Of a stretch of 64,000 bases of DNA, positions 335-3,803 are shown in pieces. Each line of letters begins with the position of its first letter. Within the stretch, counting starts at the first letter, position 1. Both the position numbers and the translations under genes were made by a program. The notes under the pieces were generated by a model. That model had not been told where the DNA came from. It made no database searches and saw only the letters and a program-made list of their open reading frames with translations. Location of the stretch: the NCBI GenBank assembly GCA_964609855.1, contig CAZSTB010000005.1, forward strand, positions 1,467-65,466, read 5' to 3'. The DNA comes from an uncultured Bdellovibrionales bacterium. Lineage in GTDB: Bacteria > Patescibacteriota > Minisyncoccia > Moranbacterales > GWC2-37-73.

Positions 335-413
335 TTTTATTAATTTAAAGAGGGGGATAATGTGTTTTTCTGCTTTTTGGGAAGCATAAAAAAATAATTT
401 ATTTTCAAAAAAT
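335..413 (+). repeat. Conserved ~80-nt 5' leader, copy 1 (near-identical to 1318-1397). Contains the hairpin TTCTGCTT-TTTGGG-AAGCATAA at 368-389, then an A-rich tract running into the start codon.
   Basis: Direct comparison of 335-413 with 1318-1397: about 70 of 78 nt identical, and both end exactly at an ATG start. No SD. Confidence 0.8.
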
Positions 414-1280
414 ATGATTGGACATCTAATATATACATACGATCGACTTGATGATGCTAGAATCTTGCAAGAAATTTCAAAAAATTATTTAGCCAAAGAG
501 CTAGGTGATATTTTCCTCATTCATGCTTACAACGGAGAAAATTCATTTGGATATGAAAAATATCTTGAAGACAAATTGATAAAGATAAAAAATAAAGGAC
601 ATTTTGAAGGTGCTTGCGATTTGATAAATCAAGGAATTGCTGAAGCAGGAAGGAATTTAGACATAGATTATTTAATGGTGACCGCATCCGACACTTGGTT
701 GTTGAATGCTGATTATATTAAGAAAATAATTTCAGAAATGAAAGAGATGAATAAGGTGATTGCAACTTGTGCGTGGGATGATCGCGGAATAGTTGAACCT
801 GATATAAACAATACAATGAATTTGTTTAAGATTGGTTTTGCGACTGACTTTTTTATATTAGATATGAAATGGCAAAGAGAAAATAAGCTCTTTCCGCTCA
901 AATTCAAATCTATCGCAAGAAAATTTAATGATGTGAAAGTTTTTATGACTGGACATCTCGTTTTACTGGAAGATGTTCTAGCTTATGTATATGCTAAGTT
1001 TTTTATAAAAAAGTATAATTATAATTACGGTGTTTATAAACGAGAAATGATAAAATCTTTGTATCACATGGTTGATAGAGAGCCTATACATTTTCGCAAA
1101 GAAGATGGTATATGGAAAAGAAAAATGGAATGGCCAAGTTTGGGAATTTACACTTACCATGACGAAGATGTCCAAAAGAAGAAAGCTGTATTGCAATCAA
1201 ACGAGGAAATTTCAGGTGTAAATATAGAAAAATTAAGAAATACAGACGATTTGTCATATTTTAACAAGATAAATCAATAA
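414..1280 (+). CDS. Hypothetical protein (288 aa), possibly a nucleotide-sugar transferase-like fold. No confident family.
   Basis: Long ORF with ATG start directly after the conserved leader. AT-rich codon usage typical of the window. No recognisable motif. Confidence 0.5.
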   Translation: MIGHLIYTYDRLDDARILQEISKNYLAKELGDIFLIHAYNGENSFGYEKYLEDKLIKIKNKGHFEGACDLINQGIAEAGRNLDIDYLMVTASDTWLLNADYIKKIISEMKEMNKVIATCAWDDRGIVEPDINNTMNLFKIGFATDFFILDMKWQRENKLFPLKFKSIARKFNDVKVFMTGHLVLLEDVLAYVYAKFFIKKYNYNYGVYKREMIKSLYHMVDREPIHFRKEDGIWKRKMEWPSLGIYTYHDEDVQKKKAVLQSNEEISGVNIEKLRNTDDLSYFNKINQ

Positions 1281-1320
1281 GGAGTCTTTTTTCAAAAAAA
1301 TTCACCCCGACCCTCTTTTT
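1276..1320 (+). repeat. Mini repeat (core ATTCACCCC-GACCCTC) immediately after the stop codon; a second copy at 1911-1958. Looks like a hairpin-deleted version of module A of the 150-bp repeat family.
   Basis: caataaggagtcttttttcaaaaaaattcaccccgaccctcttttt versus caataaggagtttcaaaaaaatgaaattcacccctgacccctctttc. The core matches ggtattaACCCC[ggggcaagccct]GACCCTC of the element at 25167. Confidence 0.6.
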
Positions 1321-1397
1321 TTATTTAATAATGGAGGGAGATAAGAAGTTTTTCTGCTTTTTGGGAAGCAGAAAAAAATAATTTATTTTCAAAAATT
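1318..1397 (+). repeat. Conserved ~80-nt 5' leader, copy 2, with a perfect palindrome TTCTGCTT-TTTGGG-AAGCAGAA at 1352-1373.
   Basis: Near-identical to 335-413. The 8-bp arms are exact reverse complements. Confidence 0.8.
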
Positions 1398-2324: not shown

Positions 2325-3803
2325 TTATTTCTTTAAATAATGAAAGACAGATCCAATGAAATACAATGAGCCGGTTATTGCAACCGGCTTTTTTGATTCT
2401 TTGATACTTTTGATGATCTGCGAATAATTGTTGGGAATCACTGAAAAGTTGCGAAAATTTTGAGATTCTAAAAAAGTTGCGATTTCTTTGTTGTCAACAG
2501 AGCTCCAATGATTGTCCATTCCTGAAGTTGAAAAATTAGTCAGCAAGATTTTATCAGCCAGGGGAATTATTTTCTTCAGTATATTCTTGAAATCCTTGCT
2601 TTTTTTGAAAGCGACAAGGAAAGTGAATTTTTGATTAGGATAAATTGCAGCCAAGTTAGTGGTAAAAGCCTCCATTTTTTGTGGATTGTGTGCGCCATCT
2701 ATTATTACGTTTTGTTTTTCAATCTTTCTAATTTCCATGCGACCAGGAATTGAAATGCTTTCAAGAGAAAATCTCAAAGCCTTTTCATTGATGTTGAAAT
2801 CGTCACGTTCTGATGCGATTGCTAGACAAGCCAGAGCAAGTGAGCAATTTTCAGCTTGATGTTTTCCAATGAGTCCCAATCTGACCTTTTTCAAAATTAG
2901 AGATTTTTCATTCTGAACTTGTTTCAGAATACCTCTCTGATTGCGCATTTTTATAGATCCTGAAACAAGTTCAGGATGACAATTGGGAGATTTGAAATTG
3001 AAATCAAATACTGTCTTAATCGGCGTTGAGGAGGTTGTGTAATAATTCTTTTCTTGTTTGATTGTGAAAAGCTGGGATTTTTTATCAATGCATCTTTCTT
3101 TGATAATTTTTTGTGCTCTAGCTGACTGTTGGATATTGATTGTTGTATTTTGCTTTCCTATTATTCCTGCTTTCTGCTCAGCAATTTTTGCAATTGTTTT
3201 TCCGAGAATTTCAGTGTGATCTAGTCCAATTTTTGTGATGATGCAGATCTTGTTTTTCGAGCTGACCGTGTTGGTTGCGTCCAAGGTTCCACCTAGACCA
3301 GTTTCCATGACCGCGTAGTCAATCTTTTCTTTGGCGAACATGAAAAATGCCAATCCTACATTTATTTCAAAAAATGTCGGTGCGCCATATTTGCAACTTT
3401 CCATTTTTCGTATTGCGGGAAGAATCTGATTGAAATATTTTAAAATCAATTTTTCACTCAGTAGCGCATTCGCATGTCCGCCATTTGTAGTGGCGGTTTG
3501 CGACGCGGTAGTGGAGCAAAAAACTTGCATTCTTTCTCTAATGTCAAAAATATGCGGAGAAATTGAAAGTCCAACCTTGAATCCCTGGCTTTGCAAAACA
3601 TGGCTAGTCAGGTAGGCGGTTGAACCTTTGCCGGATGTCCCTGCAATATGAATAACCTTTAGCTTGTTTTGCGGGTTGCCAAGCAGTTTCATGAAATATT
3701 TGGCTCTTTTGAGCCCAATATCTCCCATGAACAAAGCATCCCTGGTCGGGACACGGGTTTTGAGAAAATCTTCAAATTGCTGTAGACTATTTACTTTTAA
3801 CAT
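2325..3803 (-). CDS. folC: Folylpolyglutamate synthase / dihydrofolate synthase (Mur ligase family), extended (492 aa).
   Basis: HIAGTSGKGST P-loop and SPH motif typical of FolC/Mur ligases. ATG-initiated long ORF. Confidence 0.8.
   Translation of the reverse strand: MLKVNSLQQFEDFLKTRVPTRDALFMGDIGLKRAKYFMKLLGNPQNKLKVIHIAGTSGKGSTAYLTSHVLQSQGFKVGLSISPHIFDIRERMQVFCSTTASQTATTNGGHANALLSEKLILKYFNQILPAIRKMESCKYGAPTFFEINVGLAFFMFAKEKIDYAVMETGLGGTLDATNTVSSKNKICIITKIGLDHTEILGKTIAKIAEQKAGIIGKQNTTINIQQSARAQKIIKERCIDKKSQLFTIKQEKNYYTTSSTPIKTVFDFNFKSPNCHPELVSGSIKMRNQRGILKQVQNEKSLILKKVRLGLIGKHQAENCSLALACLAIASERDDFNINEKALRFSLESISIPGRMEIRKIEKQNVIIDGAHNPQKMEAFTTNLAAIYPNQKFTFLVAFKKSKDFKNILKKIIPLADKILLTNFSTSGMDNHWSSVDNKEIATFLESQNFRNFSVIPNNYSQIIKSIKESKKPVAITGSLYFIGSVFHYLKK
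2908..2982. mobile_element. MITE-like inverted-repeat element (~75 bp) inserted IN FRAME inside folC. Arms tcattctgaacttgtttcagaat / atcctgaaacaagttcaggatgacaa.
   Basis: 29-30 nt of this are identical to the tyrS-pheS intergenic element at 34561-34621 (tgtcatcctgaacttgtttcaggatctata). Encodes ...CHPELVSGSIKMRNQRGILKQVQNE... in FolC. Confidence 0.6.

Follow-up and report, generated by a model that had tools for sequence, protein, structure and literature searches.

Repeated gene ends in a probable integron-like cassette array of a Patescibacteria bacterium

The DNA analyzed here, called the window, is a stretch of 64,000 nt of contig CAZSTB010000005.1 from a bacterium of the candidate phyla radiation (CPR; Patescibacteria). 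Near its start, two unrelated open reading frames (ORFs), ORF414 and ORF1398, are preceded by nearly the same leader, which contains a palindrome, and are followed by a shared 3' junction. We propose that the window start, its first ~2.1 kb, is probably the far end of an integron-like cassette array, in which the repeated ends would belong to a common chassis, termed B-type, that carries unrelated cargo, and in which two cassettes appear to have been fused.

The leaders, the 3' junctions and the parts of the cassette region

In the following list, A is our label for a ~150-nt branched inverted-repeat site, B-left for the outer left arm, T2 for the right-end module, and HP1 for the leader hairpin; a slash within a motif marks the inferred crossover.

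3-104, + strand: 3' end of the ORF of the preceding cassette, running off the window start; frame uncertain (frame 3, stop at 102-104; frame 1, stop at 91-93)
105-235, + strand: branched attC-like site A (nhmmer with the A model, 105-249, E = 2.4e-27), ending in ACG (233-235)
108-118, + strand: 5' box of A, CAGC-GTAT-AAC
120-130 with 221-231, 136-143 with 174-181, and 193-197 with 213-217, + strand: stems P1, P2, and P3 of A in a predicted three-way fold
236-241, + strand: cassette start, TT plus the 4-nt box CAAC, just past the inferred crossover ACG/TT; CAAC is the reverse complement of GTTG at 2040-2043
242-306, + strand: B-left, outer left terminal inverted repeat, GAAATAAATTTTTTATCTT...GGGACAGAAAATTTG, kept in loci L013, L014, L043, L045, L049, L050, and L061; pairs with 1977-2046
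307-331, + strand: 25-nt insertion CACCACAAGGGCATTTCCGCTGGTC, private to this copy in the alignments; folds as a local bulge
332-364, + strand: inner left arm ending in the G-rich box AGGGGGATAATGTG (351-364); 332-355 pairs with 1948-1976, including the C-rich box
365-392, + strand: HP1 copy 1, TTTTTCTGCTT-TTTGGG-AAGCATAAAAA, with mismatch T387, outside the terminal inverted repeat
393-413, + strand: A/T-rich 21-nt spacer abutting the ATG, without a Shine-Dalgarno (SD) motif; the spacing is 21-24 nt in most other copies
414-1280, + strand: ORF414, 288 amino acids, cargo gene
1279-1322, + strand: degenerate T2 with AAGGAGT (1279-1285), C-rich box TTCACCCCGACCCTC (1301-1315), and T7 run (1316-1322); aligns to the complete T2 up to the T run
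1323-1348, + strand: remnant of the inner left arm and G-rich box copy 2 (GGAGGGAGATAAGAAG, 1333-1348); nhmmer aligns 1317-1401 to model positions 121-205 only
1349-1376, + strand: HP1 copy 2, perfect 11-6-11
1377-1397, + strand: A/T-rich spacer copy 2
1398-1916, + strand: ORF1398, 172 amino acids, cargo gene
1915-1969, + strand: complete T2 with AAGGAGT over the stop codon, hairpin arms 1920-1936 and 1954-1969, and C-rich loop TTCACCCCTGACCCCTC (1937-1953)
1970-2039, + strand: right terminal inverted repeat, the reverse complement of B-left (nhmmer minus-strand match, 2058-1941); near-identical to the 3' end of the L014 cassette
2035-2077, + strand: truncated A closing the cassette, with ACATC (2035-2039), GTTG (2040-2043), AAC (2044-2046), and the P1 5' arm (2048-2058); nhmmer aligns 2033-2077 to model positions 6-49 only

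The two leaders form a direct repeat of 87 nt (330-416 versus 1314-1400) with 86% identity. The first-pass annotation had put the 78 nt upstream of the two ATGs at about 90% identity; the repeat is real, but the figure is 67/78 (85.9%), and the identity is unevenly spread, with 48/50 from HP1 to the ATG (364-413) versus 24/34 in the preceding 34 nt. The palindrome TTCTGCTT-TTTGGG-AAGCAGAA is, as had been noted, perfect in copy 2 (1352-1373) and has one mismatch (T387) in copy 1 (368-389). Counted with the flanking T and A runs, its arms extend from 8 to 11 nt (TTTTTCTGCTT and AAGCAGAAAAA; 365-392 and 1349-1376), giving an 11-6-11 structure; the T run had been over-counted when it was described as five T preceding TTCTGCTT, since it has five T in all. 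These two matches are the only ones in 64 kb at up to three mismatches (0.00 expected; 100 shuffles). The repeat common to both copies extends past the palindrome by 35 nt on its upstream side and by 24 nt on its downstream side. The 3' junction, TCAATAAGGAGT...TTCACCCC(T)GACCC(C)TC, occurs twice, at 1274-1320 and at 1910-1956, as first described, and the proteins encoded by ORF414 and ORF1398 are indeed unrelated (BLASTP E = 0.22). The A/T tract without an SD motif that abuts both start codons is real as well, yet ordinary here, because only 4/46 long ORFs of the window have an SD-like motif upstream, A/T runs typically preceding the starts.

The 9-mer ATAAGGAGT, a perfect SD-like sequence in this SD-poor genome, lies directly 5' of the leader hairpin (365-392 and 1349-1376) and of the 3' hairpin (1915-1936) in the same orientation, and does so in related loci too; at the 3' hairpin it provides the stop codon of unrelated ORFs. 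Leader peptides or small ORFs (e.g., MKFTPDPS...) were sought in the leader and the 3' junction, and neither frames nor start codons are kept between the copies. HP1 was also considered as an intrinsic terminator and rejected, because its T and A runs (T5 before, A5-7 after) pair with each other; the scan had flagged it only via a loose A/T tail. The organism does use ordinary terminators, as seen from a canonical bidirectional intrinsic terminator at 2368-2390 (GAGCCGGTT...AACCGGCTT plus a T run) between ORF2103 and a convergent folC-like gene.

Cassette ends, branched sites and the linked recombinase

Folding the two ends of the window cassette together (1905-2051 joined to 233-425) gave 58 cross pairs that connect 235-355 with 1948-2046 and include pairing of the G-rich with the C-rich box, while HP1 folded locally outside this structure. 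Thus, as far as the G-rich box (351-364), the leader represents one side, the left arm, of a long terminal inverted repeat, and its partner is the C-rich motif of the 3' junction, which is not an independent motif. T2 consists of AAGGAGT over the stop codon, a covarying stem of 15 bp (TGAAA/TTTCA, GGAA/TTCC, GGGCA/TGCCC), the fixed loop TTCACCCCTRACCCCTC and, following these, the reverse complement of B-left. It recurs after unrelated ORFs in six other loci (L013, L014, L036, L043, L046, and L049). L014, a locus from the same study, shares its A and B flank as well as its 3' end with the window but encloses a different cargo gene, which shows exchange of cargo within the chassis. By comparison of these loci, leader and 3' junction are shown to be the left and right ends of a single, widespread and apparently mobile cassette family, the B-type; other cassette families too carry extended complementary ends.

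Further copies were sought by scanning one genome per species for the hairpin with a free loop, by a metagenome scan, and by nhmmer with profiles of A and of the leader/B region. The hairpin scan of one genome per species returned mostly chance matches, among which 6 loci also had flanks in common, and the metagenome scan added 7 loci with flanks. At least 10 CPR contigs besides that of the window contain the leader and the junction, placed before more than 10 unrelated genes. The first-pass annotation had named a lack of additional copies as a refuting outcome; this is contradicted by the copies present upstream of unrelated genes in many other genomes. Leader homologs were found in L013, L014, L036/L039, L043 (a Moranbacteria genome), L045-L052, and L061, and the ORFs behind them encode a membrane protein family, cbiM, and proteins of 310, 303, 514, and 203 amino acids, among others. 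Similarity among the loci reaches ~130 nt 5' of the hairpin (CGAAATAAATTTTTTATCTT...GTGATTT...GGGACAGAAAATTTGATTTTTTATTTATTAAGGGAGGGAGATAAGGAG). A single match in viral contigs lay within a coding region and was dismissed as chance.

The leader copies always occur within same-strand arrays of A. Profile-found copies of A and B lie on one strand per locus at a spacing of 0.5-1.5 kb, with at least 12 A sites within ~10 kb in L050/L051, and A is present upstream of every profile-found leader copy except copy 2 of the window. Cargo on the cassette side of such loci (L063 8179-8800; L062 7904-9926; L036 375-1422; L060 6547-7218) includes a HepT/MNT toxin-antitoxin pair, Bro-N and DUF218 proteins, cbiM/cbiN, and an IS200-type Y1 transposase. 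The same arrays contain a second, shorter kind of site, a simple hairpin of ~48 nt (TTGATCTGAAATGTCGCTCCACTACGTTYGCTCCATTTCARATCAACG) that forms mini-cassettes without an ORF (L050, reverse strand, 3070-3120; and beside the attI-like site in L061, L062, L063, and L043).

The window holds one full A (105-249), predicted to fold into a three-way junction, and one truncated A (2033-2077). The consensus of A reads ACATC-N4'-AAC-A, P1, GGYTCAAAA, hairpin P2, TTTTCTCGACCCAAATT, hairpin P3, AACTTC, P1', (T)AACG/TT-N4-GAAAT. In a covariation test with 19 copies and the 21 pairs of P1 and P2, 91% of the cells were paired, as opposed to at most 52% in controls with a slid register, and 15/21 pairs varied on both sides; double changes were found in 73 cells versus 25.6 in shuffles, and none of 500 shuffles reached 73. 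At least seven types of P1 arm exist, all of them complementary, some with a bulged base. Compared with canonical attC boxes, A has the AAC...GTT ends and a covarying inner stem, but it is longer and branched, and most N4 sequences are not RRRY. The counts of G-T versus A-C cells were uninformative as to which strand of A folds.

The cassette boundaries could be placed within ACG/TT. A 502-bp cassette of L050 is present in two copies that are 100% identical in different surroundings, and the identity starts and ends inside ACGTT. Across 24 site pairs from eight loci, the N4 after GTT is the exact reverse complement of the N4' before AAC of the next site in 14, whereas 100,000 permutations averaged 1.8 and never exceeded 9; between N4 and N4' of one and the same site, the match was found in 3/26. 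The window fits this rule (TT-CAAC, 236-241; GTTG-AAC, 2040-2046), and the crossover at G/TT is that of integrons. Since N4 and N4' match across neighboring sites, the cassettes follow the integron rule by which a cassette begins with the distal part of its own site. This comparison shows that A behaves as an integron attC site would, with recombination predicted to join cassettes at ACG/TT. A transposon with terminal inverted repeats and ACGTT target duplication was considered and rejected: the sequences inside the boundaries are generally not mutual inverted repeats, and the A core lies outside the paired ends.

Beside the first site of L014, L039, L043, and L045, a divergent gene encodes a tyrosine recombinase of 270-280 amino acids. 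It exceeds the cut-off of NF040815 ("tyrosine recombinase/integron integrase") and reaches 210-212 bits against a cut-off of 265 for TIGR02249, which it matches in two stretches; its alignment to VchIntIA (2a3v) skips chain residues 181-240, and that to XerA (4a8e) runs without a break. Members of this family are very numerous in CPR (6027 matches at E <= 1e-30). Four additional recombinase loci (L060-L063) were picked solely for their long contigs, and in each of the four, A sites lie within ~2.7 kb on the divergent side. The stretch from the recombinase start to the first crossover is conserved, with TGnTATAAT directed toward the cassettes and then ATATTCG..GCAATAT..TATGCGAAAACACTTCGCATAYAAANGAG/TT. 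The resulting attI-like site, ...TATGCGAAAACACTTCGCATAYAAANGAG/TT-N4-GAAAT, lies ~90-110 nt from the recombinase start in L014, L045, L060, L061, L062, and L063; the first cassette begins at this site, and its N4 matches the next site. In the same six loci, an extended -10-like box (TGCTATAAT, TGTTATAAT, TGATATAAT, TGGTATATAAT, or TGCTAATAT) faces the cassettes ~10-25 nt from the recombinase start and is a candidate platform promoter. The GC skew keeps its sign across the locus in L061, L062, and L063 and switches only in L060; with no switch in 3/4, the recombinase locus is not a terminus dif.

Together, the comparisons show the following organization. In other genomes, the arrays begin at the attI-like site beside a divergent XerA/IntI-like recombinase, with the outward extended -10 box between them, and each cassette starts with TT-N4-GAAAT and ends with CATC-N4'-AAC plus the A core, N4 and N4' being complementary. 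In B-type cassettes, long terminal inverted repeats extend the A stem; the left end comprises B-left with the G-box, HP1, ~21 nt of A/T, and the ATG, and the right end AAGGAGT over the stop codon, the hairpin with the C-rich loop TTCACCCCTGACCCCTC that partners the G-box, and the reverse complement of B-left. ORF414 and ORF1398 are unrelated cargo in this common chassis.

In the window, the two genes stand side by side in an unusual arrangement. As far as the T7 run, junction 2 (1279-1348) can be aligned to T2, and beyond it the sequence is that of the inner leader; copy 2 is the only leader among ~25 that has neither B-left nor A upstream. The outer ends are of the common CAAC/GTTG type, which also occurs in L014, L050, and L061. 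By the ACG/TT boundaries, 236 to ~2046 is one cassette, probably a fusion of two. The first-pass notion of gene cassettes with conserved boundaries thus holds insofar as the ends are conserved cassette ends in an integron-like array, but both ORFs lie in one cassette rather than in two intact ones. Most simply, two B-type cassettes would have been fused by a deletion with one end in the T run of T2 and the other in that of the following leader, with loss of the right arm, A, and B-left. Between HP1 and the ATG, the agreement at 48/50 positions suggests that this part was converted later or duplicated recently.

Downstream of the cassette follow a 69-amino-acid ORF (2103-2312), the terminator at 2368-2390, and housekeeping genes. 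The remainder of A is missing at 2035-2077, which marks an array end, and the succession of truncated A, small ORF, terminator, and housekeeping genes identifies this as the far end, with the body of the array upstream of the window. Neither cargo gene has a match at the curated cut-off in Pfam or at E <= 0.01 in NCBIfam and PADLOC. Homologs of ORF414 were found in CPR genomes only and in differing contexts: in second position within a cassette of a different type in L053, outside any array in L055 and L058, and, in another CPR genome (L055 1314-6906), adjoining genes of a cyclic-oligonucleotide-based antiphage signaling system (CBASS). A conserved ORF414-ORF1398 gene pair was rejected, the 172-amino-acid neighbor of the L058 homolog being unrelated. 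Proteins identical to those of the window were found in runs SRR446575-7, and Logan short-read contigs of the same organism (L001-L003) start or end at window positions 331, 1377, and 2056, that is, at the repeated leader and the truncated A. Assemblies are therefore interrupted by these repeats; the recombinase family, too, is represented mostly on short contigs.

Role of the hairpin and alternative explanations

Several findings weigh against an integron-like array of B-type cassettes. Ten of the 24 N4 pairs are imperfect, and in L050 the arms of two sites pair with those of the other site. The single-stranded junctions of A (GGYTCAAAA, TTTTCTCGACCCAAATT, and AACTTC; 131-135, 182-192, and 218-220 in the window) are near-invariant across genomes of 37-46% G+C; a plain attC model leaves them unexplained, and their conservation seems to exceed what a hairpin site needs. 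The recombinase does not contain the IntI-specific insertion (near patch III). No recombinase gene is present within the 64-kb window, and the link of its array to the recombinase would be by analogy with L014, whose A and B flank is near-identical. One class of HP1, judged from single-sequence folds, forms a weak stem only, and its loop is the same as the P3 loops of A. As to a putative role of HP1 in a transcript, the window scan found no sigma-70 consensus promoter in the leader, and the TATAAT-like boxes of other copies are inconsistently placed. The contrast between 48/50 identical positions from HP1 to the ATG and 24/34 before them is more readily reconciled with gene conversion or a recent local duplication than with two cassettes that have long been independent. 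Finally, the whole account, including recombination, excision, and transcription, is built on comparative sequence analysis.

In the two L050 sites just mentioned (reverse strand, crossovers 5696 and 6202), the P1 arms are unpaired within each site and paired between the sites, a pattern that insertion of a cassette into a site, or recombination between two sites within the conserved core, would produce.

Outside the window, the HP1 stem reads TTTTTTGC/GCAAAAAA, TTTTTGCC/GGGTAAAAA, CCGCC/GGCGG or, in L061, CTGCTC/GAGCAG, with loops of 5, 6, 7, or 10 nt; in the divergent copies, for which the plain alignment is not structure-aware, HP1 was judged from single-sequence folds. Different stems in which both arms have changed, together with the varying loops, favor conservation of HP1 as a structure over a sequence-specific operator. 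If the arrays are read from the promoter-like box of the platform, HP1 would sit in the RNA just 5' of a start codon without SD. Our best guess, a weak one, is that it may act as a transcript stem-loop affecting stability, processing, or openness of the start region, or possibly in single-stranded DNA instead.

An operator for a dimeric regulator, within a promoter/operator module shared by both genes, is an improbable explanation of the palindrome, albeit one with specific points in its favor: the dyad is a perfect 11-6-11, its distance to the start codon is 21 nt in a genome that is poor in SD motifs and whose transcripts are perhaps short-leadered, and in L036 an extended -10 (TGTTATAAT) follows directly 3' of the hairpin. 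However, the spacing of the arms varies with the loop, the arms change jointly or give way to unrelated stems, the palindrome is not accompanied by a regulator gene, and no consistent -35/-10 elements surround it.

The 11-6-11 geometry is also that of dif sites. This raises the question of whether the 28-bp palindrome is a dif-like Xer core and ORF414, located between two direct copies 984 bp apart, one of them imperfect, an Xer-integrated element analogous to integrative mobile elements exploiting Xer (IMEX) or to pdif modules; the similarity of the linked recombinase to XerA, which it resembles most, would suit this proposal. We regard it as very unlikely, since the mapped boundaries lie at ACG/TT and not at HP1, and HP1 has none of the GAAAT or GCATAT-type motifs common to attI-like and A sites. 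Elsewhere, HP1 occurs once per cassette with variable stem and loop, the repeat extends beyond the palindrome on both sides, and the GC skew does not switch at the recombinase locus in three of the four genomes.

A plain recent segmental duplication within the genome, devoid of any mobile-cassette meaning, would agree with copies 1 and 2 being mutually closest from HP1 to the ATG and with derived bases shared by them (AATAATTTATTTTC) that are not seen in other genomes. Because the leader stands before more than 10 unrelated genes in other genomes, the simple local duplication that had been offered as an alternative fails to explain it; the 3' junction is widespread too, and both map to cassette ends. 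As the full explanation, duplication is contradicted and retains hardly any probability, although local duplication or conversion may still have homogenized the last 50 nt. Equally poor prospects attach to A and the leader being structured RNAs (non-coding RNA or a riboswitch-like leader), for which the strong covariation of P1 and P2, the conserved single-stranded junctions, and the position before genes would speak, as Rfam gave no match even at E <= 10 over A (105-249), the two leaders, and the two 3' junctions, non-Watson-Crick cells are A-C as often as G-T (9 versus 5), unlike in RNA helices, and the exact boundaries, the N4 rule, and the recombinase link would go unexplained.

Relation to known systems and significance

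The proposed array resembles sedentary chromosomal integrons (for instance the superintegron of Vibrio cholerae, whose attC repeats are the VCR) in the divergent tyrosine recombinase, the adjacent attI-like site, and the outward promoter-like box. Similarities further include the same-strand array of small, mostly unknown ORFs with toxin-antitoxin genes among them, the imperfect palindrome of one family after each cassette, the G/TT crossover, and the exact boundaries of duplicated cassettes. Unlike in these integrons, the CPR recombinase is nearer to XerA and without the IntI-specific insertion; the site is larger (a ~150-nt core plus up to ~120 nt of extra stem per side), with three helices and conserved junctions; and of the R boxes only AAC...GTT is conserved, RRRY being mostly absent. 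Moreover, part of the palindrome is placed at the cassette 5' end, and the cassettes consequently share a long leader.

With IMEX such as CTX phage, which uses a folded single-stranded attP, and with the pdif modules of Acinetobacter, the CPR loci share a Xer-family recombinase and the arraying of successive elements at one site; a folded hairpin may be the recombination substrate as in CTX. They differ in that the site lies beside the recombinase gene, with no GC-skew switch in 3/4 loci, and in that the cassettes carry single genes without phage or plasmid functions and are not flanked by inverted 28-bp sites. HP1 itself is reminiscent of 5' stabilizer stem-loops of the ompA or Bacillus subtilis aprE type in being a strong hairpin with compensatory changes at a fixed short distance before the start codon. 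Unlike those, it is carried at the end of a mobile cassette, and its U5/A5 flanks contribute to the stem. In sum, the system works like a sedentary chromosomal integron, yet its recombinase fails the test for the IntI insertion and its sites depart from canonical attC, and the arrangement is neither that of a terminus dif nor that of IMEX.

In the literature searched, the one related note is of a "Cand" subgroup among the Xer-related recombinases, present in candidate phyla (PMC8138268). We lean slightly toward the broader view that CPR lineages (Moranbacteria, Pacebacteria, Wolfebacteria, and relatives) carry a hitherto undescribed integron-like gene-capture platform, composed of a "Cand"-type recombinase without the IntI insertion, large branched attC-like sites, and chassis cassettes with their own 5' leader (G-box plus hairpin) and 3' module, which could be a sister or an ancestral form of integrons. 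In the searchable open-access literature, we found no account of CPR cassette arrays of this kind; an earlier description elsewhere is possible.

With this interpretation, an odd local repeat becomes a defined part of a mobile element. If it is correct, integron-type gene capture would need no IntI-specific domain and would exist in CPR, a very large group with reduced genomes and poorly known gene exchange. The abundant "XerD-like" recombinase of CPR would gain a concrete function beside or instead of dimer resolution, and assembly breaks at these loci would be explained. The cassette ends, comprising leader, hairpin, and 3' module, would then represent testable portable expression signals in organisms that mostly do without Shine-Dalgarno sequences.

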